Below the pieces are notes generated by a model, which was not told the origin of the DNA, did not search any database, and saw nothing but the letters and a program-made list of their open reading frames with translations. Of a stretch of DNA of 64,000 bases, positions 43,719-61,112 are shown one piece after another. This stretch comes from Haloferacalesvirus Serpecor1 (Duplodnaviria; Heunggongvirae; Uroviricota; Caudoviricetes; Thumleimavirales; Hafunaviridae). The translations under genes and the position numbers were made by a program. Position 1 is the stretch's first letter, and each line of letters begins with the position of its first letter. Where the stretch lies: the IMG/VR virus record IMGVR_UViG_2974801466_000001, positions 10,197-74,196 of that record; one strand, written 5' to 3'.

Positions 43719-43799
43719 AGCGACCGGCGGGAATCGAACCTCGCCTTGACCCTACCCACGCCCGTCGAGGGGCATGGTCATAGGGCCACCATTGGTCGC
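43719..43799 (-). ncRNA. tRNA-like element (acceptor 6 bp, D-like arm, irregular anticodon arm with 6-nt loop, T-like arm with 8-nt loop GTTCGATT and an A-C mismatch)
   Basis: Reverse complement gcgacc..tggt-ggccctatg-acca..ggcgag-gttcgatt-cccgcc-ggtcgc. Does not satisfy canonical tRNA rules. Confidence 0.3.
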
Positions 43800-43818
43800 A
43801 AAACGCAGAACGAGTGTG

Positions 43819-43953
43819 CTACTCGTTCTTCATTTCGTACATCGTCTCCTCGTGTTCCAACTCAGCCTTTCGTCGGAAGTATCCGAACGCGGCCACCGTG
43901 ATAACCGCCACGAGGAACAGCCACAGAATAATCAAGAAGACGACTTTGAACAT
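43819..43953 (-). CDS. 44-aa single-pass membrane peptide (MFKVVFLIILWLFLVAVITVAAFGYFRRKAELEHEETMYEMKNE), partner of the SPFH protein
   Basis: ATG is 1 nt after the SPFH gene stop. Below the ORF-table cutoff. Confidence 0.35.
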   Translation of the reverse strand: MFKVVFLIILWLFLVAVITVAAFGYFRRKAELEHEETMYEMKNE

Positions 43954-43954
43954 C

Positions 43955-44830
43955 CTACTCGCCTTCTTCGTCAGTCTCCGTCACGAGCGAGGGGGTTTCG
44001 TCACTCGGGAGGTAGATGGTCTTACCATCCGAGTTCTTGATTGCCTCGATGTAGCGAATCTGGATGAGTTCCGGGTTGTTACGAACGGACTGAGCGACAA
44101 TCTCGTTCGACTTCGCCTCACCACGAGCCTTCTCGATTTGGGCACGGGCTTCCTGCTTCGCCACTTCAACCTCGGCCTCAGCCTTCAGCTCTCTCTGTTG
44201 GGCGACCTCCTTCTCCGTAATTGAACGCTCGTAAGACTCGGGGAAGTTCACCTTCGTAATCTGAACGGAGTCCAGAACGAGGCCGGTCTGAGCGAACTTC
44301 TCCTCAAGCTGGCTCCGAGCATCCATCGTGATTTCCGTCTGACCGGCGGAGGTGTAGACCTCGCTCGTCTTCATGCTACCCGTCGTAACGAGCATCTGCT
44401 TGGCGAGCGTCGTCCGAATCATCCGCTTCTCGGCGTTCTCAAGAGTGCGGTAGTCGGTGTAGAAGTCAGTCACCGCCTCCGGGTCGTTCGGAAGCTGGTA
44501 GCGAACGGTCACGTCGAACGTCGCCTCCACACCATCGGCGGTCTTCACCACGATGGGGTCAGCGTATTCTTTCGCTCCCTCTCCGGGGTTCGAGGTCATG
44601 GTGTACGCCTGCTGGCGAGTAGAGAGCGTCACAACGTCGTTCTGGACAGGAGTAATCCAGTTCGCACCGGGCTGAAGAACCTCACCGCTTGCGTCACCCC
44701 ACTCGGTGACGACGCCGACGTTTCCTTCATCAACGGGATTCCATGCCATCGCACCGAGCGAACCGGCGGTGAGAAGCATGAAAGCCATAACAACTCCGAC
44801 AGCTTTCAGTTTGAATGTAGTTAGTTCCAT
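43955..44830 (-). CDS. SPFH / band-7 (stomatin-prohibitin-flotillin-HflK/C) family membrane protein, 291 aa
   Basis: N-terminal TM anchor, then the SPFH core (GNVGVVTEWG...VTLSTRQQ...ADGVEATFDVTVRYQL), then a C-terminal coiled coil (QQRELKAEAEVEVAKQEARAQIEKARGEA). Confidence 0.8.
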   Translation of the reverse strand: MELTTFKLKAVGVVMAFMLLTAGSLGAMAWNPVDEGNVGVVTEWGDASGEVLQPGANWITPVQNDVVTLSTRQQAYTMTSNPGEGAKEYADPIVVKTADGVEATFDVTVRYQLPNDPEAVTDFYTDYRTLENAEKRMIRTTLAKQMLVTTGSMKTSEVYTSAGQTEITMDARSQLEEKFAQTGLVLDSVQITKVNFPESYERSITEKEVAQQRELKAEAEVEVAKQEARAQIEKARGEAKSNEIVAQSVRNNPELIQIRYIEAIKNSDGKTIYLPSDETPSLVTETDEEGE

Positions 44831-44874
44831 TTAGTAGATTTCTCTGGTCTGTTTAATAGAGCGGTACACCGCAT

Positions 44875-44943
44875 CGAGTTGGGAGGAATCGAACCTACCC
44901 ACTACGCTAACCAGCAACTCGGAAAAGCCACCGTAGAGGTGGC
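44875..44943 (-). ncRNA. tRNA-like minihelix (7-bp acceptor-like stem cgagttg/caactcg enclosing a T-arm-like hairpin gtagg-ttcgatt-cctcc) plus adjacent 6-bp hairpin gccacc-gtaga-ggtggc
   Basis: Lacks D and anticodon arms. Located in the leader between promoter cassette 6 and the SPFH gene. Confidence 0.3.
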
Positions 44944-45009
44944 TGGACACCAACGAGTAACAATGGCAGGACTCAGCCAAGCAAACGAGTCAAGGGGGCC
45001 ACCGCGACC

Positions 45010-45063
45010 TCCTCACTCTATTAGACGCGATACTATGACTTAAAGATACCGCTTTGAGTCTTT
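45010..45063 (-). promoter_or_regulatory. Promoter cassette copy 6 (leftward), drives the tRNA-like/SPFH operon
   Basis: cCTCACTCTATTAGACGcgatactatGACTTAAAGATACCgcttTGAGTCTTT. Confidence 0.55.
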
Positions 45064-45119
45064 ACTCCGTGCTACTCAGATAGCAAAGACTTAAGCGAAG
45101 CAACTCCGTCTTTGTAGCT

Positions 45120-45671
45120 ATGGCGAAGACGAAACATAAGAATCAGGAAAAGGTCGTCAAGTGCCCCGTTGAGGGTTGCGACCACGAGGGGTTATCCCGA
45201 GGGATGCACCTTCACGTTCGTCAGTCCAGCGGCAACGGACACGGGCCGAACGGGGATGTACCCGAACACTTAGACTTTAGTAATCTGGAAGTTGTGGGTA
45301 CACGGGAAGTTGAAATGGATTACCCGTCTGAACGCAAAGGCGAGGACGTTGCCCGTCTCTGTCCCTTCTGCCGACGCCCATTCAGCGGGTATCAGGGAGT
45401 TATGATTCACCTCGGTCAGATTCAGGGGAAGGAGAACCACCCTGAGGATGCTACCGATATGGTGGAGAAGGGTGACTGTCCGGTTGCTCACGTCGATGAG
45501 AACCGCAACGTTGTAGAAGTGATTGAGGAAGGCGACCCCGACCTCATGCCGTCCACGGAAGACCGTCGTGAAGGCTCTGTGCCGCGAGCCGACGTGATTG
45601 CCTACATCGAGTGGGCTGAATCCAACGACCACCTCACGGCGGCCAACAAAGCCCGAGAGATGCTACTCTAA
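45120..45671 (+). CDS. Zinc-finger protein, 183 aa
   Basis: KCPVEGCDHEG and CPFCRRPFSG Cys/His pairs. Confidence 0.45.
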   Translation: MAKTKHKNQEKVVKCPVEGCDHEGLSRGMHLHVRQSSGNGHGPNGDVPEHLDFSNLEVVGTREVEMDYPSERKGEDVARLCPFCRRPFSGYQGVMIHLGQIQGKENHPEDATDMVEKGDCPVAHVDENRNVVEVIEEGDPDLMPSTEDRREGSVPRADVIAYIEWAESNDHLTAANKAREMLL

Positions 45672-46189
45672 ATCTCGATTTCGTCACGCCACTTTTCCGA
45701 GAAGAACTCGGGTTCGTACTTCCACTTATTTATCGACGGGTCGTTACGGTACAGTTCGTTTGTGAGCTTCACCATCTCGTAGAACCCCTGTTTCGTCAGG
45801 TAGTCCTTCTCCCGATACGCCGGGAGGATTTCTCCCATGAAGATGGACGCCAGCTCACTCTGCTGAATCAGGTACGGAGCCAGCGGCCCGTAGAATCGCT
45901 CAATTGATTCAGCGTCCGAGATTTTGAACAGCATCGTCGTTCCGCTATCCTTGATTTCCCACCGGACTCCCTGCTCGGAACAGTATTCCTCGAATAGCCC
46001 GAACACGGCGGTCTGTGGGTCGCTACGACTGATTTGAACGTATGGTTCTATCTTGTATCCGGTCTTGAAGTCATCATCCTCGCTGATTTCCACTCGGAAC
46101 CGACCGAGTGAATCGACTACTCCGGCGATGTACGCTACGTCGTCCTCTTTCATACCACCCAGTTTCGGGGTGGCCTGTGATAATGTCAT
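45668..46189 (-). CDS. LAGLIDADG-type homing endonuclease-like protein (single motif, I-CreI-sized), 173 aa
   Basis: N-terminal DVAYIAGVVDSLGRF matches the LAGLIDADG core pattern. Free-standing between two inverted promoter cassettes. Confidence 0.4.
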   Translation of the reverse strand: MTLSQATPKLGGMKEDDVAYIAGVVDSLGRFRVEISEDDDFKTGYKIEPYVQISRSDPQTAVFGLFEEYCSEQGVRWEIKDSGTTMLFKISDAESIERFYGPLAPYLIQQSELASIFMGEILPAYREKDYLTKQGFYEMVKLTNELYRNDPSINKWKYEPEFFSEKWRDEIEI

Positions 46190-46205
46190 TCATTGTTCTG
46201 CTGTC

Positions 46206-46262
46206 AAAGACTTAGAATCGGTATCTTTAAGTCCTTAGTTGCCGTCTATTAGAGTGAGGAGT
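46206..46262 (+). promoter_or_regulatory. Promoter cassette copy 7 (rightward), drives 46443..47383
   Basis: AAAGACTTAgaatcggtatcTTTAAGtccttagttgCCGTCTATTAGAGTGAGGAG. Confidence 0.55.
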
Positions 46263-46442
46263 TCTTCCGGCTCTACTACACAGTATAGTACCTACTACTC
46301 TACTCTAACTACTCTGATAACACCCTGTTAGCTAAAGAGACTCGATGTAGTAAACTACTCTTAGTAATACACTTAGTAGTTATACTCTTAGTTATACTGT
46401 TAGGTCAGTTATCGGGGAACTCTACCTCTGAGATGATTCTAA

Positions 46443-46922
46443 ATGGAAACCCTAACCGAGAAGCAACCACCTGAAGTCATTACTCCCGATACCGAGAACG
46501 CAACGTACTTCGACCCGAGCGAACGAAACACCAATTCTGACAAGTTCAAGCGGCTGATGCTCTACAACCGGGGAACTTGGCTCGGCCCCGGCGAGGAAAA
46601 CAAGAAGGTCACGCACCGACAGGACAACCTCGCTATCCTCGATTCCCTCAGCGGCCAACTCGAACTAACGCCCTTCCAGAAGGGCAAAGCACGACGAATC
46701 TATGACGCTCTCGACCTACAAGACCTCGGTAAACCTGCTTGCCTCGTTGCTTTCGGTGTTTGCGCTCTCGTTGCTAACGACGACGTTCACGACGGGACTC
46801 GCTACTGGCCGACTGCCAACGACACCTGCGACCTGTTCGAGAACATCGCTGGCAACCTCGGGTTCACGGAGAATCAACAGCTCAGCATCATTCTCACTAT
46901 CGACCACCGGAGGCCGGAATGA
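46443..46922 (+). CDS. Hypothetical protein, 159 aa
   Basis: ORF preceded by a long leader carrying the conserved CTCGATGTAGTAAACTAC motif. Confidence 0.45.
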   Translation: METLTEKQPPEVITPDTENATYFDPSERNTNSDKFKRLMLYNRGTWLGPGEENKKVTHRQDNLAILDSLSGQLELTPFQKGKARRIYDALDLQDLGKPACLVAFGVCALVANDDVHDGTRYWPTANDTCDLFENIAGNLGFTENQQLSIILTIDHRRPE

Positions 46923-47383
46923 GCGAGTTTACGATTCTCCGCGACACTCGGGAACACGAGGGCCACGGTTACTGGTTCGAGGACTACCCCGTGGAAGTGA
47001 AGGAGACGAAGCTCCGTACCGGCGACTACGCCGTACAGGAACCGGGCTACTACGGCAAGCACGGAACCTACGTCCCTCCGTTCGCAGTTGAACGCAAGGC
47101 GAAGGGTGACTTCCTTAACTCCATCACTCACGAACGCGACCGCTTCGAGCGGGAGCTGAAGCGAGCCGACGATTGGGAAGCCCCGATGCCGGTCGTGGTC
47201 GAAGCCCCGTGGCTTGACTTCACGCAGGGCAACTACTGGCGGAATATCAATCCCAACTCGATTATTGGGACGGTCGAAAAGTGGCCGGGCTACTACAACG
47301 TTGACTTCTTCTTCAAGCCAACTGTATCCGACTCAGAGAAGTTCACTTACGAGTTCCTCAAGTGGTGGAACAATCGAGAGTGA
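46919..47383 (+). CDS. PD-(D/E)XK nuclease-like protein (possible Holliday-junction resolvase / VRR-NUC-like), 154 aa
   Basis: TGDYAV ... FAVERKAKGD (D ... E-x-K arrangement). Confidence 0.35.
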   Translation: MSEFTILRDTREHEGHGYWFEDYPVEVKETKLRTGDYAVQEPGYYGKHGTYVPPFAVERKAKGDFLNSITHERDRFERELKRADDWEAPMPVVVEAPWLDFTQGNYWRNINPNSIIGTVEKWPGYYNVDFFFKPTVSDSEKFTYEFLKWWNNRE

Positions 47384-47677
47384 ACGCCAACACCTCTGCC
47401 GACGAACTTCTGTTCGAGCGTAATCGAGTTTCGGTGCTGTAAAAGTCGTGTTTGACACTCTATACTACTGTTCGTAACCGTCGATGTGTTTTTCATGGGT
47501 GGATAATTCGACGACTTTCCCAATGTGCAAGATTAGTCGGTCGGTCGAACTCAACTTCTTCGGGAGGTAGAAAAGGGACTGCTTGGGGACTTTCTGGTTC
47601 GTTCCTACTCGGTACTCCTGTCTCACGTTGAACATAGACATTTGGTAATTATTCGTTCTATTCTGAGTGCTGTACCC

Positions 47678-47893
47678 CTACGCTCGAAGAACGTCCGACT
47701 GCGCGGCTTCGAGCGCAGAGACAGCTTCATCGAGATAATCTTCGGCGGCATAACCGGCTACATCATCGTCGTCTCTCGCAAGTTCGAGAGCGTCAATAAC
47801 GTCTGAGAAGAAATCCGCTATGTTTTCAGTATCCTGTTCATCCGCATCGAGTCCTGTGATTTTTGCCTTAACTTCCATTACGACTTCCTTCAA
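47678..47893 (-). CDS. Hypothetical acidic protein, 71 aa
   Basis: ORF. Confidence 0.35.
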   Translation of the reverse strand: MKEVVMEVKAKITGLDADEQDTENIADFFSDVIDALELARDDDDVAGYAAEDYLDEAVSALEAAQSDVLRA

Positions 47894-48051
47894 AGACGCC
47901 TCTCATTTTCGAGTTGCATCTCAAGCTTCTGCTTTTGGTCTTTGGTGCGCTTCTCCGAGATTTCCTTCTGAAGAAGGAACACGGGAAGGAGTACGATAGT
48001 CGAGAGGAATATCACGCCGAAGACGGCGAGGCCGTCCAGTAGGGCGCTCAT
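47890..48051 (-). CDS. Small membrane peptide (MSALLDGLAVFGVIFLSTIVLLPVFLLQKE..., about 53 aa)
   Basis: C-terminal in-frame part of ORF 47890..48444. The remainder of that ORF is Arg/Gly-rich, looks like a GC artefact and overlaps 48048..48386. Confidence 0.3.
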   Translation of the reverse strand: MSALLDGLAVFGVIFLSTIVLLPVFLLQKEISEKRTKDQKQKLEMQLENERRL

Positions 48052-48386
48052 CGGTTTTCCTCCACCCACGAGATTGCCGTAGCGAGGGCGCTCATCATCT
48101 CGATGTACCACGGCCCGGCATACAGAGAGTAGACCGGGTAGCCGTCCTCGATATACTCGTCGGGAGTATCCTCGTTGACTATCTCGAACTCTCGAACGAC
48201 TATGTTGTACCCCTGTTCGGGGTCGTCGTTCTCCGGGTAGACCTCCACCTCCACGCACTTTTCGTAATTGTAGAGCCGGAAGTCCCGAGCGTTCGCTCCG
48301 ATGGGGCAGTATTCCCAATCGTACTTCGTGAGGTCGGGGCCAACGTGGTTGCCGCTCTTGTCGGTTTTGACACCCACTACAACCAC
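48048..48386 (-). CDS. Hypothetical acidic protein, 112 aa
   Basis: ORF. Confidence 0.4.
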   Translation of the reverse strand: MVVVGVKTDKSGNHVGPDLTKYDWEYCPIGANARDFRLYNYEKCVEVEVYPENDDPEQGYNIVVREFEIVNEDTPDEYIEDGYPVYSLYAGPWYIEMMSALATAISWVEENR

Positions 48387-48673
48387 CCGAGGTCTTCCGC
48401 AATATCTCGCCCGACCCTTGACTTTCGTTCAGCGGCGTACTCATCCTCCTCGATGCTTTCGACCGCCGCGAGCCACGCTTGGCGGGCTTTCTCCTCGGGG
48501 ATTACTGAGTGAGCGTTCCCCAAGTCCAGCTCCCGAACGTAGTAGTCGTAAGTCTCTGCTATCTCGGTGGACTCGTCGCCCGTGTTCGGAGCGAAGCCCG
48601 CCGCGACCGCCGGGCAACAGCATCCACCAATCTCGTCCTTTCCGTAAGCGAAGTTCTTGCTTTGCGTACTCAT
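48377..48673 (-). CDS. Hypothetical protein, 98 aa (CCCP motif)
   Basis: ORF. Confidence 0.35.
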   Translation of the reverse strand: MSTQSKNFAYGKDEIGGCCCPAVAAGFAPNTGDESTEIAETYDYYVRELDLGNAHSVIPEEKARQAWLAAVESIEEDEYAAERKSRVGRDIAEDLGWL

Positions 48674-49122
48674 TGTTCGTAGACGACCTCGTATTTGTCA
48701 CCGACCCGAACCCGAACGTATCCGTCACCGTACTCGTTCGGCGGGTCGCAGTCCAGAATCTCGATTTCCTCGAAGTCCGTGATTTCCACGGACACCAGAG
48801 CGTCTTCGTACAACCGCTCGATGAAGCCCCACTCGTTGTGGTAGTCTTCTTCCGACGCGAGGTAGGCCACGTCCGGCTCACCGTCGCGGAGAAGCACGAC
48901 GCGCTCCACGTCGCACCGGAACGACCGCATTTCCTCACATTGCCAGCCCTCCCCGTAACGGCCCTCAGCGTAGTGGCACGACTCGATGAAGACAGCCGCT
49001 CCATCCTCGAAGATGGGGTAGTCGGGGTCACACGGCATCCACTCGTGGTCGTGAGAGCGGTCGGGAGCGTTCCACGGCGCTCGTGGGTCGCCAGCCGACG
49101 TTCCCGGCGGGTAGTTGCTCAC
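48670..49122 (-). CDS. Hypothetical acidic protein, 150 aa
   Basis: ORF. Confidence 0.4.
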   Translation of the reverse strand: MSNYPPGTSAGDPRAPWNAPDRSHDHEWMPCDPDYPIFEDGAAVFIESCHYAEGRYGEGWQCEEMRSFRCDVERVVLLRDGEPDVAYLASEEDYHNEWGFIERLYEDALVSVEITDFEEIEILDCDPPNEYGDGYVRVRVGDKYEVVYEQ

Positions 49123-49454
49123 GCTTCCACCTCCGGTCGCCGGGAAGACGACGGCCCGTAGCTCAGGATAGCCGAGAACGAGAGCGTCTTCCGCTCGCTA
49201 CGGTTCAGGTCGTGTTCTTCGGCGTGCTTTTCCACGATTGCCGCCTGCCTGTCCCCATCGAGGTAGTGGTCGGAGTACCAACCACTCCCGTAGTCGTCGG
49301 GGTTTTCCAGCACATCATCGAAGTCGAGAGGCGGTTCTGCTTCCGCGTACATCTCGCGGAGAACGTCGTTGAGGATTTCTTGTATATTTATCATAGGCTG
49401 AATCGCTCGTTCCACCGGGGGTTGTCCATGAACGTCGTGCCACAGTCGGGACAC
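49119..49454 (-). CDS. Hypothetical acidic protein, 111 aa
   Basis: ORF. Confidence 0.35.
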   Translation of the reverse strand: MSRLWHDVHGQPPVERAIQPMINIQEILNDVLREMYAEAEPPLDFDDVLENPDDYGSGWYSDHYLDGDRQAAIVEKHAEEHDLNRSERKTLSFSAILSYGPSSSRRPEVEA

Positions 49455-49528
49455 TCGAACGTCGTCTCACGTCCGTTCTGTAAGACGGCTGTTCCGGGGC
49501 ACTCCACGCAGTTTCGAGTCTCCGGCAT
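49391..49528 (-). CDS. 45-aa zinc-ribbon peptide (MPETRNCVECPG...FECPDCGTTF)
   Basis: Internal Met of ORF 49391..49804. Its ATG abuts the stop of 49528..49959. Two CxxC pairs. Confidence 0.3.
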   Translation of the reverse strand: MPETRNCVECPGTAVLQNGRETTFECPDCGTTFMDNPRWNERFSL

Positions 49529-49959
49529 CACTCGTCTCCGTGGACGACCGGGGCGATTGCGAGGTACTGCTCGGAGTCCTCGGGCTTCACCACGAGAATG
49601 AAGTTCCACTCGGGGTGGATGAACAGCGCCTCGGGGTTCTCCCGAAGGTTCACGTCGAAGAACTCCTCGGCGTGGTCGAAGTAGGAGAACTGAACGCGGG
49701 TCTTCTTCCCCTCCGCTCCCTCCTCGGGGTAGAGGTCTACGTAGTGCCCGTCGTCCGTTCGCTGAACGTCCACCGGGTGTTCCGACGCGAGCTGGTAGTC
49801 CCACGTAATCCGCTTGTTCTTCTTCCTCAGGTCGTCGCCGTAGGTTCCGAGGCAGACCGTGTTTTCGTCGTTCTCTATCGCTCCTTCGAGAGTGTCGGTG
49901 TTGACGCTCCCGAACAGTTCCTCGAACATCTCCTCATCTGTTGTAGTGGTAACACTCAT
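49528..49959 (-). CDS. Hypothetical acidic protein, 143 aa
   Basis: ORF. Confidence 0.4.
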   Translation of the reverse strand: MSVTTTTDEEMFEELFGSVNTDTLEGAIENDENTVCLGTYGDDLRKKNKRITWDYQLASEHPVDVQRTDDGHYVDLYPEEGAEGKKTRVQFSYFDHAEEFFDVNLRENPEALFIHPEWNFILVVKPEDSEQYLAIAPVVHGDE

Positions 49960-50384
49960 TATTGGTTCTCTGAGTCTTTGCCGTGAATTTCGTACAGCGC
50001 CTCCATGAAATCCGACATTTCATCGAAGCTACTCCGGTCAACCGTCTCGCCGTCGTAGTAGGCTGACTGATTAAGCCGAGCGAGGTCGAGACACCTATCA
50101 CACAGCCCGTTTCGAGGGCCGGGAGTCTCGTTGCCGCAAACCCCGTAGTATTCGCACTCCCAATCCTCCGGCTGAGGTTCAGCCCGAGTGTTGTGGGAGG
50201 TGTGGGTTGTATCGACGCCGAGCTTGTCCATCCAGTAGGAGATTGTCCCGGCGGAACAGCCGAGTTCGTCGCCCATCTCGGACTGGTCAAGCCCTTCGTC
50301 GTGATACAGCTCACGGAGCGTTTCTTTGTCCTTCCACGGGTCTTTGTCGGGGATTTCCGCCCCGAAGTCAGCGAGGGTACTCAT
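49959..50384 (-). CDS. HTH DNA-binding protein (sigma-70 region-4-like / LuxR-like HTH), 141 aa
   Basis: KETLRELYHDEGLDQSEMGDELGCSAGTISYWMDKLGV. Confidence 0.4.
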   Translation of the reverse strand: MSTLADFGAEIPDKDPWKDKETLRELYHDEGLDQSEMGDELGCSAGTISYWMDKLGVDTTHTSHNTRAEPQPEDWECEYYGVCGNETPGPRNGLCDRCLDLARLNQSAYYDGETVDRSSFDEMSDFMEALYEIHGKDSENQ

Positions 50385-50560
50385 TAGTGAATCCTCCGCT
50401 CTTTGAACTCCTCGATGTGGATTTCCTCGAACTGTTCTTCGCCGTCTTCATATCCCACAGAACACCACACGTAGGGATGTTCAGGGGACGGCCCGGCCTT
50501 AACCAGAACGCGACCGTAGCCTTCGAGCGAATACCCGCTACCTTTTGCTGGTGCTTTCAT
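50384..50560 (-). CDS. Hypothetical small protein (start MKAPAKGSGY; the ORF-table N-terminal extension is likely spurious)
   Basis: ATG overlaps the TGA of the upstream zinc-ribbon peptide. Confidence 0.3.
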   Translation of the reverse strand: MKAPAKGSGYSLEGYGRVLVKAGPSPEHPYVWCSVGYEDGEEQFEEIHIEEFKERRIH

Positions 50561-50841: not shown

Positions 50842-51108
50842 TCACCACCAGCCATCGAATCCCATTACCTGCCGGGCGAGGTTGTCTATCGAGTCCCGAC
50901 CGCTCAGGAACAGGACGTTCGACACCATCTGCTTGATAGCATCGAGGCGGGGGAACCGGGCTTCCCGAACCTCCATCCACTTGTTCACCACTTCCCGAAG
51001 GGAGCGGGCCTTGTCGTAGAACGCCGTCACCAGTTCAGCCGAGAACTGTCGGGCGAGGTTCCACGCTTCGAGCTGTTCGAGGTATCGTCCGTGTAGTCCA
51101 TTATCCAT
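50842..51108 (-). CDS. Hypothetical protein, 88 aa
   Basis: ORF. Confidence 0.4.
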   Translation of the reverse strand: MDNGLHGRYLEQLEAWNLARQFSAELVTAFYDKARSLREVVNKWMEVREARFPRLDAIKQMVSNVLFLSGRDSIDNLARQVMGFDGWW

Positions 51109-51506: not shown

Positions 51507-51556
51507 AGTTTTGTGTTCCTCTAAGACTCGGAGTGATAACTATAAGTCTTTATCGG

Positions 51557-53353: not shown

Positions 53354-53618
53354 TTCTTAGAAGGTTCTGGTCAGCTCGTCAATAGCCGGGGCGACCAACT
53401 CCCGACGACGCCCCACCGTAGGGCGTTTCGCCGTTATTCTCGCCACTCCCGCCGCTCTATGTCGATTATCTCAGACACGTCACGGCGGGGCTTCGTCTTT
53501 CCACGACGACGCCAACACGCCTTCCTCCGAAGGGAGTAGAAGTAGTCGTAGTCAGATTGCTCTATCTTCTCAATATCTTCTTCCATAATACCGTAGTGAC
53601 ACCGCAGGATGTTCGCCG

Positions 53619-54126: not shown

Positions 54127-54469
54127 CTATCAAGGCTTCCTCTGAGACGGCCTCGAACCAGAACTTCACACCAACTCCCTTCCCGGTGAGAGTAGAGAAG
54201 GCGAACTTGAATCCGAACTCCTCCATCGTCTTCCGCTCGCTGTTCATCACGAGGTGGGAACACGGGTCGCCACTACTGTCTACGTAGGGGTGGAACGGAA
54301 TCAGGAGCATCTGAACGTCCCCATCGTTCCCAATTCGGATGTGGCTCAGCTCACGGAACCGCTCGGGAAGCTCATCGAGGATTCGTTCTTCGAGAACATC
54401 GTAGTCCACTTCTTCGGTCGTCGGTTCTTCGGTGCTGGTGCTGTCGCTGGTGCTGGTGGTCGTACTCAT
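54095..54469 (-). CDS. Hypothetical acidic protein, 124 aa
   Basis: ORF. Confidence 0.35.
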   Translation of the reverse strand: MSTTTSTSDSTSTEEPTTEEVDYDVLEERILDELPERFRELSHIRIGNDGDVQMLLIPFHPYVDSSGDPCSHLVMNSERKTMEEFGFKFAFSTLTGKGVGVKFWFEAVSEEALIGGEVEDPVNG

Positions 54470-54476
54470 TTGAGGA

Positions 54477-55130
54477 TTACTCGCTGGTTTCTCGCTCTCG
54501 TTCTCGCCGGGCGCAGATGTTACTGAGGAACAGCTTGAGGGAATACTCGGGAATCTGTCGGTCGGCGTTCCGAACCGCGACTCGTGGGCTGATTACCTCG
54601 AACGGCTCACCGTCCGGGTCGTACATCCGCCACTCTCCTTGCCCGATTGATTCGAGAGTGTACGTCACCGGCTCTTTCGCAGATAGGTTGATGTAGTAGT
54701 CGTACTCGAACCGGACACCACCATCGTAGATGGGGCCTTCGAGCAGGTTTATCGCTTCACCGAGGTCTTCTCGTGTCTCCTCGATAAAGCGAACCCAATT
54801 GAGAACGTCGTTATACAACCCGGCGTGAGCAAGGTCGCTCACCGCATCTTGCTGGTCTTCCGGGTCGTCGTAGTACCGCTCGCCGCCTTCGTTATAGAAG
54901 CCATTATCGCAATGGTAGATGACACACCGCTGGTAATACTGAACCAGCTCGTGATTCTCCACGGCGGCTTCAACGATAGCCCACATCGGAACGTCGTCGG
55001 GAATCTCGTTGGGATTGAACGCAGAGCTTCGGATTTCCTCGGCTCCCTCCATCCCCCAATCGTAGTATTTCTTTGCCGTTGCCTGTACCTCGTTGTTGTA
55101 ACTCTCGAAGGAGTCGTATTTGTTTGTCAT
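54477..55130 (-). CDS. Hypothetical protein, 217 aa
   Basis: ORF. Confidence 0.45.
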   Translation of the reverse strand: MTNKYDSFESYNNEVQATAKKYYDWGMEGAEEIRSSAFNPNEIPDDVPMWAIVEAAVENHELVQYYQRCVIYHCDNGFYNEGGERYYDDPEDQQDAVSDLAHAGLYNDVLNWVRFIEETREDLGEAINLLEGPIYDGGVRFEYDYYINLSAKEPVTYTLESIGQGEWRMYDPDGEPFEVISPRVAVRNADRQIPEYSLKLFLSNICARRERERETSE

Positions 55131-55200
55131 AGGTGGTAGACCTCCGCTCCGATAATCGCCGCGAAAATTAACACCGCACAGAGAAATACAAGAAAGAGGC

Positions 55201-55683
55201 TCACGGTTTCAGCCCCGGAGTATCCACGTACAGCGGGCCGATTAGTTCGGCTACGTCGCTGAAGTTCTCCGGTTCCACGATGAAGCCCCGCCACGCGAGG
55301 CTGAACTTCCCGAGGTCGCGCTCTTTCAGCTCATCGTCAATCACTCGGCAGATGTGTTCGTTGTAGAGTCGGGGAACCACGAAGAACCCCTGAGGGAACT
55401 GCTTAATCTCGAACGTCGTCGGCTTCTCCTTCACCAGCGACCCCCACAAGTGGGACTTCTCCGGGTCGCTCCCGTGTTGGGACACCCACATCTGAGTCAC
55501 GAGGCTACGGTAGCGTTCGTGGAGGTGGAGAGCTTCGAGATTACTCGGTTCCATCAACACATCGAGGCTGTCTATCTCATCGAGGTGGTGCTTGAGGTCG
55601 TCCACCACGAGGGCCTTTGCGATGTTCTGGTTCAACTCCCTCATCGTCCCGTAGAGGGTGTCCGAAGCCCATCCATCCTCCAC
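55201..55683 (-). CDS. Hypothetical protein, 160 aa
   Basis: ORF. Confidence 0.4.
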   Translation of the reverse strand: MEDGWASDTLYGTMRELNQNIAKALVVDDLKHHLDEIDSLDVLMEPSNLEALHLHERYRSLVTQMWVSQHGSDPEKSHLWGSLVKEKPTTFEIKQFPQGFFVVPRLYNEHICRVIDDELKERDLGKFSLAWRGFIVEPENFSDVAELIGPLYVDTPGLKP

Positions 55684-55731
55684 GGTCTGTTCGATTGTCT
55701 CCGGGTCGAGAACGAACCGCCGGTAGTAGGC

Positions 55732-56049
55732 TCACACCGACCCACCGACCGACTCGTAATACTGCTCGATGCGTCCGAACTCCGTCTCCCACACCTTCGG
55801 GTCGTCGTTGGCGGCCTCGAAGTCGGGGCGGTTCTCGGAAATCGTCTTGCTCTTTCCGTTGAAGATTTCCCGAATCCAGAAGTCGTCGTGGAGAGGCTTC
55901 GGGTCGTCCGGGTCGGTTAGTTGGGCCGCCTTCCACACCGGGCTAACCGGGTCGTCGGGCTTCAGTCGGGTTGTCCCGACGTGTTTGTTCTTCTTTAGTT
56001 CGACCAGCGATTCTCCGGCCTTCGTCTCGATAGCAGTTGGAACGCTCAT
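55732..56049 (-). CDS. Hypothetical protein, 105 aa
   Basis: ORF; AAAGACTCAAA immediately precedes the ATG. Confidence 0.4.
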   Translation of the reverse strand: MSVPTAIETKAGESLVELKKNKHVGTTRLKPDDPVSPVWKAAQLTDPDDPKPLHDDFWIREIFNGKSKTISENRPDFEAANDDPKVWETEFGRIEQYYESVGGSV

Positions 56050-56065
56050 TTTGAGTCTTTAGGAG

Positions 56066-56338
56066 TTACCGAACCATTCGCCGCGCCGCCATTCCACCAA
56101 CGAACTTCTGGTGGTGCTGTCCACAGAGGATGAACCGCGCCGTGTCGTCCTCCGCAATCTGACTCCCCTGATACGGGCAGGGGTCGTCGTCGGTCGCTAC
56201 TTCTCGTCCGTGGTGACACATCTCGTCGCCGTGGTAGTGTTCAAAGTCAACCATTAGTGAGTCTCCGCGTAGTGTTGTTCGTGAGTCTTTGCGCTGAACA
56301 TCGGGAGCTTGTCCTGCCACCACCGCTTCCAAAGGCAA
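56066..56338 (-). CDS. Cys/His-rich small protein(s) (may be two coupled peptides: 56257..56430 zinc ribbon and 56066..56255 starting MVDFEHYHG)
   Basis: Table ORF plus an overlapping alternative-frame zinc-ribbon ORF (MEPHDNYPKNCPVCEST...) joined by TAATG. Confidence 0.25.
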   Translation of the reverse strand: MPLEAVVAGQAPDVQRKDSRTTLRGDSLMVDFEHYHGDEMCHHGREVATDDDPCPYQGSQIAEDDTARFILCGQHHQKFVGGMAARRMVR

Positions 56339-56711
56339 CGGAAGTTGCTACACCGGACGCCGTAGGAGCGTTCTTCGACGGTCGATTCACAGACAGGACA
56401 GTTCTTCGGGTAGTTATCGTGGGGTTCCATTACTGAGTCACCTCAATCACACAACTCCGGCAGAAGTATTCCTTCGAGGCTTCCCCGTCGTTCAAGGTCG
56501 CCAGCCGGTATTCACCGTCTTCTTTCACCACCGGAGCGCCGTTCAACCGAAGGCCGCCACACCGCTCACAGTTCACGGCCAAGTTCCTCCCAAGAACTCG
56601 ATGAAGCGGTCTTCGTTGTGGTCGTAGTAGCCCCGAATCTCTCGGTGACAGTCGTTACACCGCCACTTCGCTCGCTTTCCCCGACCGACCAGCCAGCGGC
56701 GGTCTTTATGC

Positions 56712-56981
56712 TCACACATTAATGGTAAGCTCCTGAATCTCGCTGGTTCGGAACGGCTTGCTCGGGTCTTGTCCCTGAACCGTGGACTCGATAACGACCT
56801 CCGCGACCTTCTCGTAAGGGTAGTCCTTGGCGTACACTCCGGCTTCTTCAAGCCTCGATGCGACTTCCCGCCGAGTTTCCAGCGGGAGCTTGTTTGGTCG
56901 GAGGTAGAACATATGTCCACCTCGGGAGTCGTTCTTCGGCCCTGCTCGAACGTCGTGGGTCTTGGTATGGGTTACACTCAT
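56712..56981 (-). CDS. Hypothetical protein, 89 aa
   Basis: ORF. Confidence 0.3.
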   Translation of the reverse strand: MSVTHTKTHDVRAGPKNDSRGGHMFYLRPNKLPLETRREVASRLEEAGVYAKDYPYEKVAEVVIESTVQGQDPSKPFRTSEIQELTINV

Positions 56982-57346
56982 CGGTTCTTGGGGTGGAAGA
57001 TGTGGTTCTCAGGGTAGTCCCGGTCAGCCGACCAGCCGAAGGACTTGAGCCAAACGCTCAGACAGCTCTCACAGAGGTAGACTGTCATATAGCCCCCGGC
57101 GAGTCCTCCGGTGTAGTCGCTCAGCACGCCTTTGTCTCGACCTCCCCGGTTACACTCCGGGCAATGGTTGTCGTGGTGGTATCCCTCGAAGTGAATCCCC
57201 GAAGGCATCGACCGGAAGGGGTTGTCGTCCGAAGCGTGAGGCATCTCGAAGACCTCCGTATCCACGCCCCACGTTTCCACGAGGGCTTCGCGGCGTTCGA
57301 TTCCGATTAACTCTCTATCACCGTCGTCGTTTGTTTCAACACTCAT
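56978..57346 (-). CDS. Zinc-ribbon protein, 122 aa
   Basis: HCPECNRG...CESC Cys pairs. Confidence 0.4.
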   Translation of the reverse strand: MSVETNDDGDRELIGIERREALVETWGVDTEVFEMPHASDDNPFRSMPSGIHFEGYHHDNHCPECNRGGRDKGVLSDYTGGLAGGYMTVYLCESCLSVWLKSFGWSADRDYPENHIFHPKNR

Positions 57347-57364
57347 TATTGTATCTCCGAGTCT

Positions 57365-58033
57365 TTAGACCGAACCAACCAGAGTCAGCTCGTCGTTCAG
57401 GTATTCCTCCTGAAACTCCATCTCGTCCTCCCAATCCTTCTGACAGTCCTCGCAGTAAGCGAAGGGGAAGCTCCGGCCCTTGACCTTCACAACGTGGTCG
57501 TGGTCACAGACCTCGTTCTGATACCGCGCTTCCTCCTCGCGGAGTTCGTCGATGCGCTCCTCGACGGCCCAATGAAGGCCATTTCGGATGGAATCCTCGA
57601 TTTCAGCCTCGTTGACGCCGTTCTCGTAAGCCTCTCGAATCTCCTTCGGGGTTGCCTCGACGGTGAACTCGACAGTCACCGTTCCCCACTTCTCCCCGGT
57701 GTATTCTTCACACCGGAGCTTCGAGCCGCCCCGAGAGCCGTGCTTCATCTCCCACTTCCCTCGGGAGTAGGGAACCACCTGCCAGTTCGGGGAGCAGGAA
57801 TACTTCGCCATCCCCTCGATGTGTCCCTTATGGTCGTAGGTCTTGAGGGTGACGTGGGGAAGCTTCACCCGGAGATGCTTCATATCCCTCGGGTACAGCT
57901 CGAACCAGCGACCCATCCAGCGGGCCTTCCGAACCCGCTTCCACGCTTCTTCGTCGTTAGCGTGGAATCGGTAGTGGTAGTCTCTGCCGTCCGGGTTTCC
58001 CATCCAGTCCTCGGGATAGTCTCTCCACGTCAT
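57365..58033 (-). CDS. Hypothetical protein with C-terminal Cys/His cluster, 222 aa
   Basis: CDHDH...CEDCQ Cys/His cluster. Confidence 0.45.
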   Translation of the reverse strand: MTWRDYPEDWMGNPDGRDYHYRFHANDEEAWKRVRKARWMGRWFELYPRDMKHLRVKLPHVTLKTYDHKGHIEGMAKYSCSPNWQVVPYSRGKWEMKHGSRGGSKLRCEEYTGEKWGTVTVEFTVEATPKEIREAYENGVNEAEIEDSIRNGLHWAVEERIDELREEEARYQNEVCDHDHVVKVKGRSFPFAYCEDCQKDWEDEMEFQEEYLNDELTLVGSV

Positions 58034-58148
58034 TCGTCGTCCTCCGGTAAGAGGTCGCCGTACTTCGTCTTGCTACGCTTGCTCTTTCGCTCGGCTTTCT
58101 CGATGTTGTCCTTCTCGTCGTCGGTGAGGGTATCTTCCAGAGTTGTCA

Positions 58149-58397
58149 TTAGTGTTCGACCTCCTCGATGGGGAGAATCAGCGGCTCGTTCTCGGTGTCA
58201 ATCGGGTCTTCCGACCAGAAGAACACACCAAACGTCTCCGAATCGTATTGGTGAACGTCGTATGCTTCGGTGTAGTTCTCCTCATCATCGAACGACTCAT
58301 CGAAGGTCGTGACTGCCTCAACATCCGACTCGGCAGTAACGATGATTTCGTAGCGGTACTCTCTCATCCCTTGGTCGCTGAGTCCTATTACTGACAT
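58149..58397 (-). CDS. Hypothetical acidic protein, 82 aa
   Basis: ORF flanked by unlisted about 36-47-aa acidic mini-ORFs at 58036..58152, 58400..58510, 58786..58929 and 59117..59260. Confidence 0.35.
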   Translation of the reverse strand: MSVIGLSDQGMREYRYEIIVTAESDVEAVTTFDESFDDEENYTEAYDVHQYDSETFGVFFWSEDPIDTENEPLILPIEEVEH

Positions 58398-58507
58398 TTC
58401 TCACTCCACGATGTAGTGGCCGTTCGGCGTTTCGTAGACCGTTCCGGGCTTCACGTAGTCGTCGTCTTCTGTCATTACCTCGTCAATCGCCATTTCGAGA
58501 ATGTTCA

Positions 58508-58786
58508 TTAGTATCCTGCCTCGTAGACCGCTTCAGCTTGCTCGAACTCCGATTCATCGGCGTCTGTGAATACCTCGATTTCCACTACGGAGCGAGGGTA
58601 TCCCTCGGTATCCACGATGAAGTTCTCGTAGACAATCCACCGCTCACCGAGTCCGAGGTCTTCTTCCAGCAACTCGGTCGCCGCGAAAATCGCATCGAGT
58701 TCGTTCTCCTCATCCACCGCATACTCTGCGGCGAAAACATCCAATCCAGCCTTCAACTCCTCGATGATGTGTTCTTCCAAGCTCAT
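58508..58786 (-). CDS. Hypothetical acidic protein, 92 aa
   Basis: ORF. Confidence 0.35.
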   Translation of the reverse strand: MSLEEHIIEELKAGLDVFAAEYAVDEENELDAIFAATELLEEDLGLGERWIVYENFIVDTEGYPRSVVEIEVFTDADESEFEQAEAVYEAGY

Positions 58787-58922
58787 CCCTTGATGATTTG
58801 GAGTCCACGGTTCGCTTCGAGGACGTGTTCCGCCGCTTCCTTCGAGGGGAACGACTCGATAATCTCGAATATCGCTTCCCCGTTGTCTATCACCGGCTCT
58901 GTCGGGTCGATTAGGTGGTATC

Positions 58923-59117
58923 TCATACTGTTAGGGCCTCAGGCTTCACTTCGTGGCTCGGCTCTCCCGTAGGAGCCATCGAGAGGGTCGGGCCTTCCGG
59001 TTCCTCGTTCACCACCATTACGGCTCCCGCCGCTGGTGGTTCGTCGTCGTCGCTTCCGTCCCTCGGTCGAATCTTCAGGAGAGGATTCGCGTTGCTTTCG
59101 TCGTCGTCGCCGCTCAT
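58923..59117 (-). CDS. Hypothetical small protein, 64 aa
   Basis: ORF. Confidence 0.3.
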   Translation of the reverse strand: MSGDDDESNANPLLKIRPRDGSDDDEPPAAGAVMVVNEEPEGPTLSMAPTGEPSHEVKPEALTV

Positions 59118-59260
59118 AGGTGAGCGACTTTCTCCATCGGGTCGTTGAAACCGTCCAGCTCGTCCATATCGAAGCCGGGAACGTCCCGGTCGTCGTAGCT
59201 TGCTTCGTCGTTCATCTCCGGGTCGTGGAAGTCAGGGTAGTAGTTGTCGTACATCGTTCT

Positions 59261-59617
59261 CTAAAGGGCGTTCAGGGCGTCTTCCAGCTCTCGGTCGAAC
59301 AGCGCCACCAGTTGCTCGATGGACTGTTCCTCTCGCTCGATTGCGTTGAAGGGCCTCCCGTCAACATCGTAGATGATGTAATCAGCCTCGGTCGGCTCAA
59401 TCGCAATCGAACCCCACTCGATTTGCTCGTCGTAGAACTTCGCTACGGAAGCTCGGCGGAGTCGGTACAGGTAGTCTCCGACCTTCAGTTCGAGGTCGGC
59501 TTCGCTTAGGTCGATACGTCGGTCGTCGGTTGGTGATTCTGCTACTGCCATCGGTGTCACTCGGTAGTATGGGCTACCGAAGGCTCTGCTACGGAGTCGA
59601 ACCGTAGTTACCGCCAC
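59261..59617 (-). CDS. Hypothetical acidic protein, 118 aa (start may be MAVAESPTDD at about 59551)
   Basis: ORF. Upstream leader carries the tRNA-like minihelix. Confidence 0.35.
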   Translation of the reverse strand: MAVTTVRLRSRAFGSPYYRVTPMAVAESPTDDRRIDLSEADLELKVGDYLYRLRRASVAKFYDEQIEWGSIAIEPTEADYIIYDVDGRPFNAIEREEQSIEQLVALFDRELEDALNAL

Positions 59618-59655
59618 TCAGAGCAAAGGGTTAAAGTTGCTTACTTGAGTCTTTA
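59563..59655 (-). promoter_or_regulatory. Paralogous leader A: AAAGACTCA, 11 nt, TTTAAC promoter, then tRNA-like minihelix (gctctg-[ctacgg-TTCGACT-ccgtag]-cagagc), then second hairpin, then GTGACACCgATG
   Basis: Minus-strand reading. Minihelix at 59583..59624, second hairpin at 59563..59578. Confidence 0.4.
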
Positions 59656-60072
59656 GGCCGGAGATAGTGCGACTTTCCTCCCGTTCCTCACGTCGGCATC
59701 GAGGTGAACGTGGTTGTGCTGAGTCTCGTTCTTCGTCCCGTCGTCTCGAAGCTCCACGTAGTCAGCGTCGGTTACTGTCCCGGTGTCGTATTCCATCGTG
59801 AAGGCTTCCCTCTCTCGAATCCACGAGAGACAGTCTCCGGTGTCCCACAGGTAGAACAGTCCAGCCTCAATCCGGTCGTCGGGGGCCTCGGAGTCTTCGC
59901 TTAGGTGAAGGACTGTCTCACCATACCCGTCGATGAGTTTGACCTCCCATTCTCCGTAAGCGTTCTTCCAGCTTTTGTACGTCTCGTAGCTCGGTATGTC
60001 GTGGTAGTCCATTATCAGAACCTCAGGTGTCCTTTGCGTCGGTCGGCTCTCTCGGCTCGTTCGAGGTCGCAA
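59653..60072 (-). CDS. Hypothetical protein, 139 aa
   Basis: ORF. Confidence 0.4.
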   Translation of the reverse strand: MRPRTSRESRPTQRTPEVLIMDYHDIPSYETYKSWKNAYGEWEVKLIDGYGETVLHLSEDSEAPDDRIEAGLFYLWDTGDCLSWIREREAFTMEYDTGTVTDADYVELRDDGTKNETQHNHVHLDADVRNGRKVALSPA

Positions 60073-60333
60073 TAGAAGCAGTTACAATCCGGGTTGAAGG
60101 AGTGTGGTCGCTTCATAGGCAATCGCTGTAACCACAGGCTTTACAGCCGAAGGCTGTCAGCGAAGCACCTCCGATGTGTGTTGGCTCATCCTCCCAATAC
60201 GATTCCTCTCCGGCTTCACAGTCGTCGTTGAAGTGGCACATTTGAGTTTAGTGGTTACTCACATCGAGTCGGTGTTACCTCCGAGAAGTTCCTCACTCTC
60301 AAAGACAACGTTTGAGTATTAAGTCTTTGCTGT

Positions 60334-60690
60334 TTACATCCAAGCTCCGGTGTAAGCCGCTCCCGACTTACTCCGAACCTTTCGCTCTCGCTTCTCTCGG
60401 CGGCTCTCTTGCTCTTTGAGCGTCTTGAGCTTCTTCCCGGTTCCCCAGTAAGTCGAAACGATATACTCGGTCTTCGGGTCAATCACTACCGTCATTACAG
60501 CTCCGCTCCATCTCGTTTCCAGCAGGACGTTTCCGCTATGTCCCTGAAAGGCGTCACCTTCCTCGATAGCTTGGTCTATCGCTTCCATCGGTATCCGTCG
60601 CTCTCGTCGCCGGTTCCCACCGTGGGAACGGGGATTGTAGTCGTAGCTCGATGCGTCTCGGCTGAATTGAATCTCGCTCATAGTTGTCAC
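60334..60690 (-). CDS. Hypothetical basic protein, 118 aa
   Basis: ORF. Confidence 0.35.
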   Translation of the reverse strand: MTTMSEIQFSRDASSYDYNPRSHGGNRRRERRIPMEAIDQAIEEGDAFQGHSGNVLLETRWSGAVMTVVIDPKTEYIVSTYWGTGKKLKTLKEQESRREKRERKVRSKSGAAYTGAWM

Positions 60691-61025
60691 TCGCTGTCGT
60701 GGTATTCGGAGTAGCGCCGCCGGTACTTCGCGGCCTTCTTCTTGGCCTCGATTTCCTCGTCAGTTAGGCCGGAGCCTTCGTATTCCTCAGGCTCCGACGT
60801 TTTCTCGTGATGGGGATGAATCTCACTTGGGTCGGGAGTCCATCCCATATACTCGGCCAGCTCCTCTCCTGTAAGGAGTTCTCCCTCGCGTCGTTCCTCA
60901 ACTACCGCTCCGAAGGCTCGATGCCTCTGGTCGATTTTGAGGTCGGCTCGGTGGCTCCATTGGTTTTGCTTCTCGCTGTCGGACTGGGTTACAGTCCCGA
61001 GTTTTGGCGAAAACATTGGTGTCAC
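60687..61025 (-). CDS. Hypothetical protein, 112 aa
   Basis: ORF. Confidence 0.4.
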   Translation of the reverse strand: MTPMFSPKLGTVTQSDSEKQNQWSHRADLKIDQRHRAFGAVVEERREGELLTGEELAEYMGWTPDPSEIHPHHEKTSEPEEYEGSGLTDEEIEAKKKAAKYRRRYSEYHDSE

Positions 61026-61028
61026 TTG

Positions 61029-61112
61029 CCAGTAGCTTACGCTACTGAGGCCCTTCCGGGGAGTCGAACCCCGGAGCCGCCGCTAAGGGTTAAAGTTGCT
61101 TAGATGAGTCTT
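61029..61112 (-). promoter_or_regulatory. Paralogous leader B: AAAGACTCA, 11 nt, TTTAAC promoter, then T-arm-like hairpin ccgggg-TTCGACT-ccccgg, then hairpin cagtagc-gtaa-gctactg, then GTGACACCaATG
   Basis: Same architecture and about 60% identity with leader A. Confidence 0.4.

Follow-up and report, generated by a model that had tools for sequence, protein, structure and literature searches.

The 64,000-nucleotide (nt) stretch of DNA analysed here (referred to as the window; record coordinate = window coordinate + 10196) is identical in sequence to Halorubrum virus Serpecor1 (MN901521.1), which belongs to the genus Haloferacalesvirus and is an HF1/HF2-like myovirus. Scanning the window for the T-loop motif GGTTCGAYTCC yielded five exact copies (at 42645, 43730, 44885, 59593, and 61060), all of them on the minus strand, i.e., the coding strand of the genes surrounding these elements, while 18 matches were found when one mismatch was allowed (vs. 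5.3 ± 2.3 in shuffled sequences). The copy at 42645 is part of a real tRNA-Tyr, and the remaining four are located in non-tRNA elements, i.e., two elements referred to as el1 and el2, and two elements in gene leaders, referred to as leaders A and B. An earlier note on this DNA had pointed to these four minus-strand hairpins, and they indeed proved to be real, sense-strand, conserved, and structured.

Each of the four non-tRNA T-loops is enclosed by an outer stem that can be read from the sequence (Table 1). The earlier note had claimed such an acceptor-like stem for three elements, and for those three this holds; leader B, listed there as a T-hairpin only, has a 5-bp outer stem as well. In a relaxed tRNA search, as suggested in the note, no canonical tRNA was called at el1, el2, A, or B by either ARAGORN or the Rfam tRNA model, even at E ≤ 10 for the latter, and the only tRNAs reported by ARAGORN in this region were tRNA-Tyr and tRNA-Asn. 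The four elements had moreover been presented as a single family, a view that had to be abandoned since a model of the A/B class matched el1 and el2 on the T-loop alone. The elements thus represent two classes, with leaders A and B on the one hand and el1 and el2 on the other.

Table 1. T-loop elements of the window and their parts, in window coordinates (R2 is a covariance model described in the text).
Feature	Position	Strand	Composition or remark	Source or score
Leader A, alpha-type motif	59646..59654	minus	AAAGACTCA, overlapping the TAA stop of the upstream gene	
Leader A, t-element-like minihelix	59583..59624	minus	GCTCTG, AGTGGCGGTAA, CTACGG-TTCGACT-CCGTAG, CAGAGC	R2 65.5 bits
Leader A, enclosing stem	59624-59583	minus	GCTCTG/CAGAGC	sequence
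Leader A, second hairpin	59562..59579	minus	CGGTAG-CCCATA-CTACCG	
Leader A, conserved box	59549..59560	minus	GTGACACC-G-ATG, start codon of HrrSp1_625	
Leader B, alpha-type motif	61105..61113	minus	AAAGACTCA, common to HF2 class I promoter repeats	
Leader B, t-element-like minihelix	61051..61089	minus	CCCTT, AGCGGCGGCT, CCGGGG-TTCGACT-CCCCGG, AAGGG	R2 67.8 bits
Leader B, enclosing stem	61089-61085 / 61055-61051	minus	CCCTT/AAGGG	sequence
Leader B, second hairpin	61030..61047	minus	CAGTAGC-GTAA-GCTACTG, GNRA loop; 3 of 7 pairs changed on both sides with pairing kept	19 genomes
Leader B, conserved box	61014..61025	minus	GTGACACC-A-ATG, start codon of HrrSp1_650	
el2, tRNA-slot minihelix	44875..44921	minus	CGAGTTG, CTGGTTAGCGTAGT, imperfect T-arm GGGTAGG-TTCGATT-CCTCCC, (C)AACTCG	
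el2, enclosing stem	44921-44875	minus	CGAGTTG/CAACTCG	sequence
el1, chimeric tRNA-like three-way junction (81 nt)	43719..43799	minus	GCGACC stem, long hairpin, T-arm with 1-nt bulge, GGTCGC	
el1, enclosing stem	43799-43720	minus	GCGACC/GGTCGC	sequence
el1, long internal hairpin	43748..43787	minus	GGCCCTA/TAGGGTC + CCATGCCC/GGGCGTGG, loop CTCGAC	
Genuine tRNA-Tyr + tRNA-Asn in an mRNA leader (comparison)	42633..42856	minus		ARAGORN

Leaders A and B can be aligned column for column, i.e., AAAGACTCA, outer stem, linker, T-stem, loop, return strands, an invariant C, second hairpin, and GTGACACC-N-ATG. Their common unit consists of a 5–6 bp outer stem, a linker AGYGGCGG(N1-3), a 6-bp T-stem, and a UUCGACU loop, and the outer stem and T-stem (6 + 6 bp in A, 5 + 6 bp in B) stack directly with zero intervening bases. 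The T-loop GGTTCGACTCC is invariant in all viral copies and closed by a G-C pair, while the linker is single-stranded, GG-containing, and 8–11 nt long, with neither a D-stem nor an anticodon arm being present. The base directly after the outer stem is a C in both leaders (C 59582 in A, and C 61050 in B, where it takes the discriminator position). A covariance model covering the A and B units including the second hairpin (R1) found exactly two copies per genome arm (85–100 bits), and neither the window nor four other genome arms yielded any additional copy. Together with the alignment, these matches bear out the proposal of the earlier note that A and B are paralogues situated in gene leaders. 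As for the identical architecture it ascribed to them, the upstream motif, the T-hairpin, the second hairpin, and the box-ATG do align, whereas the TTTAAC it included is poorly conserved. A further GTGACACC box (62032-62039, minus) is found before the ATG of HrrSp1_655, the first gene of the operon, where it is preceded by a different hairpin (GGGGG...CCCCC) with no T-loop.

The conservation and pairing of both leaders were assessed in 19 haloferacalesvirus genomes. With a mean pairwise identity of 95–96%, the A/B minihelix was the best-conserved segment of its neighbourhood; of the four flanking coding stretches, three showed 63–75% identity and the fourth, the gene upstream of B, 94%, and the protein downstream of A showed only 60–64% identity in some relatives. 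All six pairs of the A outer stem were always paired, with two compensatory changes and two G·U intermediates among its variants (GCTCTG/CAGAGC, GCTCCG/CGGAGC, and GCCCCG/CGGGGC). The B stems were 100% paired and invariant save for one C-to-U change that leaves a U·G pair, while the second hairpins covaried in both leaders. When the paralogues were compared with each other, 8 of 17 pairs were found to be changed on both sides, with the loop and linker unchanged. Moreover, the G·U pairs in the minihelix are compatible only with the sense strand. Strong purifying selection acts on the A/B motif, with covariation in its stems.

A wider family of elements was found by running blastn in "distant" mode with the 50-nt B minihelix alone. 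This revealed matches in unannotated intergenic gaps of SH1 and HCIV-1 (Sphaerolipoviridae, belonging to another viral realm), HHTV-2 (Saparoviridae), and HRTV-27 (Minorvirus, with at least five strong copies), and the motif was also present on one uncultivated viral contig. With a covariance model of 48 positions built from the viral elements only (R2), the copies in these four viruses scored 52–69 bits. Every cross-virus copy is sense-oriented and located between genes, with a hairpin and, after it, an ATG downstream; in the viral elements, the hairpin lies within 3–9 nt and the ATG 30–65 nt downstream, and the box before the ATG reads GTGACACC or, in HRTV-27, ACTACC. The outer stem of four HRTV-27 copies is separated by only 0–2 nt from the stop codon (TAA) upstream of it, too little for a promoter to fit, so that the element must be part of a longer RNA. 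No promoter motif accompanies the HRTV-27 and SH1 copies. Across 15 elements from five virus groups, 95.6% of cells were paired (vs. 46–54% in slid controls) and 8 of the 12 pairs were compensatory, and RNAalifold independently gave the same two stacked helices. One HRTV-27 variant (record ~50985-51001) has the same T-arm and an outer stem CCGCGG/CCGCGG, with a 33-nt insert replacing the short linker; it is located at the annotated gp94 start, and the start codon of gp94 may be mis-called.

Scanning IMG/VR, GTDB genomes, and metagenomes for the pattern GGTTCGAYTCC...GTGACACC(NATG) retrieved haloferacalesvirus-like contigs only, and the wider family was missed because the GTGACACC anchor is genus-specific. 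A search of PLSDB with the SH1-type element returned nothing meaningful. Literature searches on the motif and on halovirus tRNA-like elements, with subscription-only papers outside their scope, led only to two papers of the Dyall-Smith group, and a description of the leader motif, or of how widely haloviruses carry it, was not found.

The closest structural counterpart of these elements is found in the host. In Haloferax, a tRNA-like structure (the t-element) is situated directly upstream of the 5S rRNA, the 5′ end of which is made by a tRNase Z cut, and, in vivo, RNase P and tRNase Z process t-element copies placed on either side of a CRISPR RNA (crRNA; PMC4326828, Marchfelder laboratory). 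Host elements were collected by querying haloarchaeal replicons with 5S rRNA, which covered Natronorubrum, Haloarcula marismortui, Halorussus, and Natrinema. In all four, the 45–50 nt before the 5S gene form a 5–6 bp stem, a 10–15 nt GG linker, a 5-bp T-stem, and a return strand, followed by C-N-UUA, with a TTCGATT or TTCGATC loop (closed forms GGTTCGATTCC or GGTTCGATCCC). The 5S rRNA begins at C-N-UUA, and the host elements end 2–4 nt before the 5S start. Although built from viral elements only, R2 aligned in full to three of the four host elements (17.0 bits for Natronorubrum, 26.9 and 24.8 bits for Haloarcula/Natrinema), and a second Natronorubrum copy scored higher than the first (30.7 bits); in Halorussus it matched the T-arm only (14.1 bits, model positions 21-37). 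The viral and host elements thus have in common their architecture, their spacing, the C after the stem, and a U two positions later. The lone 5S gene on pHH400 of Haloarcula hispanica was found to have no t-element, and the Natronorubrum bangense plasmid NZ_CP031309.1 contains several 5S matches with minihelices at 356-403 and 552-599, one of which lies before a 5S gene and the other ~30 nt after a 5S gene.

In detail, both the viral and the haloarchaeal elements place a 5–6 bp acceptor-like stem on a T-arm with a UUCGAYU loop, a GG linker (8–15 nt) replaces the D arm, and the anticodon arm is missing. They differ in that the viral copies lie between protein-coding genes and the host copies before rRNA, in the T-stem (6 bp in the virus vs. 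5 bp in the host), in the near-invariant AGYGGCGG of the viral linker, and in the hairpin that always follows the viral copies. Cleavage is furthermore documented for the host element, while we infer it for the viral ones.

Based on these likenesses, A and B are probably virus-borne t-elements at which host tRNA-processing enzymes would cut the operon RNAs, and this explanation is ranked first mainly because the viral model and architecture match the host 5S element. Host tRNase Z would then cut read-through polycistronic early transcripts after the invariant C past the outer stem, while the 5′ edge of that stem may be cut by RNase P, with the linker AGYGGCGG taking the place of the D-loop between the outer stem and the T-arm. 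Such cuts would separate the upstream from the downstream cistron and release a minihelix of ~40 nt. The downstream mRNA would begin 3–5 nt before the second hairpin, which would in turn protect its monophosphate 5′ end. The idea of the earlier note that these leaders serve RNA punctuation or end maturation has become much more plausible, with R2 and the dimensions of the element matching the host 5S element and the motif recurring in unrelated haloviruses, although its cleavage part stays predicted.

Transcript data from HF2 bear on this proposal as well. In the HF2 paper, reverse transcription PCR (RT-PCR) detects transcripts of 12–35 kb, whereas Northern blotting mostly reveals species of 1–2.5 kb, and its authors suggest that long primary transcripts are processed. 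The same paper reports a cDNA, primed on the leader-B T-loop (2937-2924), that extends to 1855; RNA reading through from the upstream gene therefore gets at least as far as the element B T-loop. Leader A is spanned by transcript F2 (3073-15629), RT-PCR did not link F1 with F2, and the authors read a 5′ end mapped by primer extension at 4384 as a transcription start. This 4384 position corresponds to the first G of GGCGG inside element A (AGT|GGCGG). Primer extension does not distinguish a primary start from a processed end; 4384 was nevertheless rejected as an RNase P or tRNase Z product since it fits neither predicted site, and the start reading of the authors was accepted.

With respect to promoter motifs, the alpha-type motif AAAGACTCA upstream of the leaders is shared with the HF2 promoter repeats, and in HF2, the promoter that was assigned to the 5′ end T-4384 and the homologous box CTAAAGACTTAGAA overlap, upstream of leader A. 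While the alpha motif (AAAGACTCA/CTAAAGACTTAGAA) is what the leaders have in common with the HF2 class I intergenic repeats, A and B differ from these in lacking the beta (TATA) and gamma (start-site) motifs. The HF2 sites homologous to leaders A and B carry no repeat (IR) annotation, and the tRNA-like part of the leaders is not mentioned in the retrieved parts of the HF2 paper. TTTAAC is doubtful as the TATA box of leader A, as it varies (TCTAAC, TTCAAC, ATCAAC) and is located at –20 to –15 relative to the HF2-homologous 5′ end, and it is probably not the TATA box. In the haloferacalesviruses, a promoter would have been added upstream of the element and, if 4384 is a start, its transcription would begin inside element A, in which case the minihelix forms in read-through RNA only.

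Several points weigh against processing of A and B as t-elements. First, cleavage at A and B is itself what we infer from structure, and Holzle and colleagues, in an abstract of 2012, are said to have found 47 other predicted Haloferax tRNA-like elements uncleaved in vitro, so that tRNA-likeness alone would be no guarantee of processing. Second, HF2 position 4384 is situated downstream of the 5′ strand of the outer stem, with the RNase P-type site 9 nt upstream of it and the tRNase Z-type site 32 nt downstream, and an RNA starting there cannot form the outer stem and carries only the T-hairpin and the second hairpin. Third, the single-sequence folding energy of A and B is unremarkable (z-scores of –1.0 to –1.7), alternative pairings compete with their fold in longer context, and the T-stem is constant within the haloferacalesviruses, its support coming from the paralogue and cross-family comparisons only. 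Finally, the loop and linker shared by the cross-family elements are partly a selection effect, since these elements were found by similarity; the E-values of R2 on the host elements (3e-7 to 2e-3 in a 4-kb search) are rough; and the architecture of the host elements was derived from four replicons and not from Haloferax itself.

The 4384 start also fits an explanation in which the T-arm mimic is an uncleaved structure of the 5′ untranslated or intercistronic region, which either binds a T-loop protein (Pus10, TrmI-type methylases, or the CCA-adding enzyme), or stabilises the mRNA 5′ end or tunes translation initiation. Such a start would put the T-hairpin 6 nt from the 5′ end, with the outer stem absent; the invariant T-loop and AGYGGCGG linker suggest sequence-specific recognition, and the element is always found 30–65 nt before an ATG that is preceded by a conserved box (GTGACACC, or ACTACC in HRTV-27). 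However, the outer stem covaries, so that the full minihelix is selected and not the T-hairpin alone, and the HRTV-27 element abuts the upstream stop codon and is hence always part of a longer RNA. Since the closest structural match moreover has a Haloferax counterpart that is known to be cleaved, we consider an uncleaved structure unlikely, although it comes second after processing.

A different question is posed by el1 and el2, which occupy tRNA slots. El2 has been published as a "partial tRNA-Arg(TCT)" with a 28-nt deletion that is also present in HRTV-8 (Dyall-Smith et al. 2020, PMC7230728). Its slot contains an intact tRNA-Arg(TCT) in six relatives (HF2, HRTV-5, -10, -22, Hardygib1, and VOLN27B) and the mini form, with the 7-bp acceptor stem and imperfect T-arm kept, in five viruses (Serpecor1, HRTV-8, HRTV-19, HJTV-2, and HSTV-4). 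The 3′ half of this mini form is invariant, and its acceptor stem shows a single change, A-U to G·U, by which pairing is preserved. When aligned with the HF2 tRNA-Arg, only 26 of 47 bases are identical (55%) vs. 82% in both flanks, and the acceptor stem differs throughout yet still pairs. As el2 is far more diverged from tRNA-Arg than its flanks are, it is probably not a recent simple deletion. While the genome paper treated this locus as a curiosity, its intact acceptor stem and T-arm thus recur in five viruses, with 45% of aligned positions differing from the tRNA.

El1 folds with a minimum free energy of –47.1 kcal/mol (z = –4.0) and is almost invariant across seven genomes (Serpecor1, HF2, and five others), save that the bulge in its T-arm varies freely (A, T, or C). 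In HRTV-8, -10, -19, and VOLN27B, a real tRNA-Gly(TCC) occupies this slot instead, followed by the same long hairpin and by a second tRNA-like element. Both arrangements contain the long hairpin, which among six distinct sequences has 4 of 15 pairs changed on both sides, with 96.7% of cells paired. Covariation is likewise seen between the acceptor stems of el1 and of the second tRNA-like element in the type II genomes (GCGACC/GGTCGC vs. GCAACCG/CGGTTGC). A D-arm-like helix (ATGGT/ACCAT) in el1 was rejected, as T/C variation occurs at one position without a compensating change. By inspection, the long hairpin was also rejected as a bulge-helix-bulge intron site, given its single 3-nt bulge opposite one G, and as a K-turn, given that it has no tandem G·A pairs.

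Both elements are followed by a hairpin and by ACCAGAGARA before the ATG, and the same downstream motif occurs at the genuine tRNA-Asn/Tyr cluster. Copies of ACCAGAGARA at 44848, 43650, 42576, and 29404 (minus) are found 6–14 nt upstream of an ATG, the one at 29404 coming after one promoter repeat, and the motif may be a leader-specific translation or processing signal. Directly upstream of el1 (43800-43830, GAACGAG..CTCGTTC tgcgTTTT) and of el2 (44922-44950, GCCACC..GGTGGC TTTT), a terminator-like hairpin followed by TTTT is seen on the minus strand, an arrangement that also precedes intact tRNAs in relatives. Downstream of tRNA-Gly, the annotated HRTV8_80 and HRTV-19_gp79 exceed their Serpecor1 homologue by 135 nt and overlap the second tRNA-like element, so that their starts are probably over-extended; the tRNA-Gly of HRTV-19 is annotated at an unexpected place, inside gp77.

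It is mainly for el1 and el2 that one might think of functionless, decaying tRNA pseudogene debris. El2 sits in the exact tRNA-Arg(TCT) slot, is devoid of an anticodon arm, and is called a partial tRNA in the genome paper, while el1 sits in the tRNA-Gly slot of relatives, and both have imperfect T-stems (a bulge or mismatch) and are unrecognised by the A/B model. Decay, however, would not lead us to expect that five viruses share the mini form of el2, with its invariant 3′ half, its pair-preserving acceptor change, and a divergence from tRNA-Arg that exceeds that of the flanks, or that el1 stays almost invariant in seven genomes with its long hairpin and acceptor stem covarying. For A and B, debris, which the earlier note itself had named as a possible undoing of its proposal, is excluded by their 95–96% identity, their covariation, and their spread across virus families. 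Debris is therefore quite improbable as an overall explanation. El1 and el2 are derivatives of real tRNA genes that could still be processed, which is less certain for them than for A and B.

Finally, we give very little credence to a role at the DNA level, in which a dimeric regulator, either viral or from the host, would bind an inverted-repeat operator or a promoter-proximal site around the transcription start: in the haloferacalesviruses, the outer-stem arms do flank the HF2 mapped 5′ end (at about –9 to –4 and +32 to +37), with the alpha motif of the promoter repeats just upstream, and these viruses encode many small CxxC/helix-turn-helix proteins, but G·U wobble intermediates are tolerated on the sense strand only, the orientation is always sense, the T-loop is exact and the element corresponds to an RNA processing signal of the host, and the promoter motif is absent from the HRTV-27 and SH1 copies.

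Processing of A and B as t-elements can be extended into a broader scenario, which we put forward more tentatively, its chances being slightly short of even. Haloviruses of two realms, i.e., Caudoviricetes (Haloferacalesvirus, Minorvirus, Halohivirus) and Sphaerolipoviridae (SH1, HCIV-1), might share a mobile "punctuation cassette", made up of a copy of the host 5S t-element and a protective hairpin, that would recruit host tRNase Z and RNase P to split polycistronic viral transcripts into single mRNAs, with el2 and el1, as degraded tRNA genes, being retained likewise in the HF1 group. Such a cassette would represent an archaeal-virus analogue of tRNA punctuation in mitochondria.

Related arrangements are known from other systems. 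In the tRNA punctuation model of animal mitochondria, tRNAs within polycistronic RNAs act as RNase P and RNase Z cleavage signals. The stop codons located 0–2 nt from the HRTV-27 elements resemble the way in which stop codons abut mitochondrial tRNAs, but here an archaeal virus would depend on host enzymes, and the signal is a minimal minihelix rather than a cloverleaf. In plant mitochondria, tRNA-like structures in polycistronic RNA, also termed t-elements, are RNase P/RNase Z signals that define mRNA ends (PMC1920247). The mascRNA/MALAT1 3′-end element (RF01684) is likewise tRNA-like, reduced in its middle part, and subject to processing by RNase P and RNase Z, but it belongs to a eukaryotic nuclear long noncoding RNA and forms a cloverleaf with an anticodon-like arm. 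This mascRNA-menRNA model was the only Rfam model touching leader B, at a score below threshold (22 bits vs. a gathering cutoff of 42.5, E = 2.3).

Two further RNA-related features were noted in the window. At 53366-53433 (minus), in the gap just upstream of a Rad3-like helicase gene, the Rfam model RF02276 identifies a type II hammerhead ribozyme (39.1 bits vs. a gathering cutoff of 37). Such a ribozyme is mentioned in PMC7230728 and annotated as a "putative hammerhead ribozyme" in Hardygib1, and its presence in the same early operon as A and B fits a theme of RNA cutting between cistrons. A weak tRNA match at 22615-22685 (plus strand, 31.9 bits) with a perfect T-arm (GGGGG-TTCAAAT-CCCCC) is probably the partial tRNA-Thr described as attP beside the integrase (PMC7230728, PMC8707807).

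T-elements are a known kind of structure, and el2 had already been published; what is new is the viral setting of such elements, their intergenic position, and their presence across virus realms. The R2 motif is compact, easy to search, and marks cistron boundaries in several halovirus families. In haloarchaeal genetics, in which crRNAs have already been generated with the host t-element, the short natural t-elements are candidates for tools that release RNAs. If A and B are indeed processed, this would provide a mechanism for the HF2 discrepancy between the long RT-PCR transcripts and the short Northern species, and it would mean that archaeal viruses exploit the tRNA-processing machinery of their host for mRNA maturation. 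It also suggests that viral "partial tRNAs" may be kept as processing signals and are not junk.

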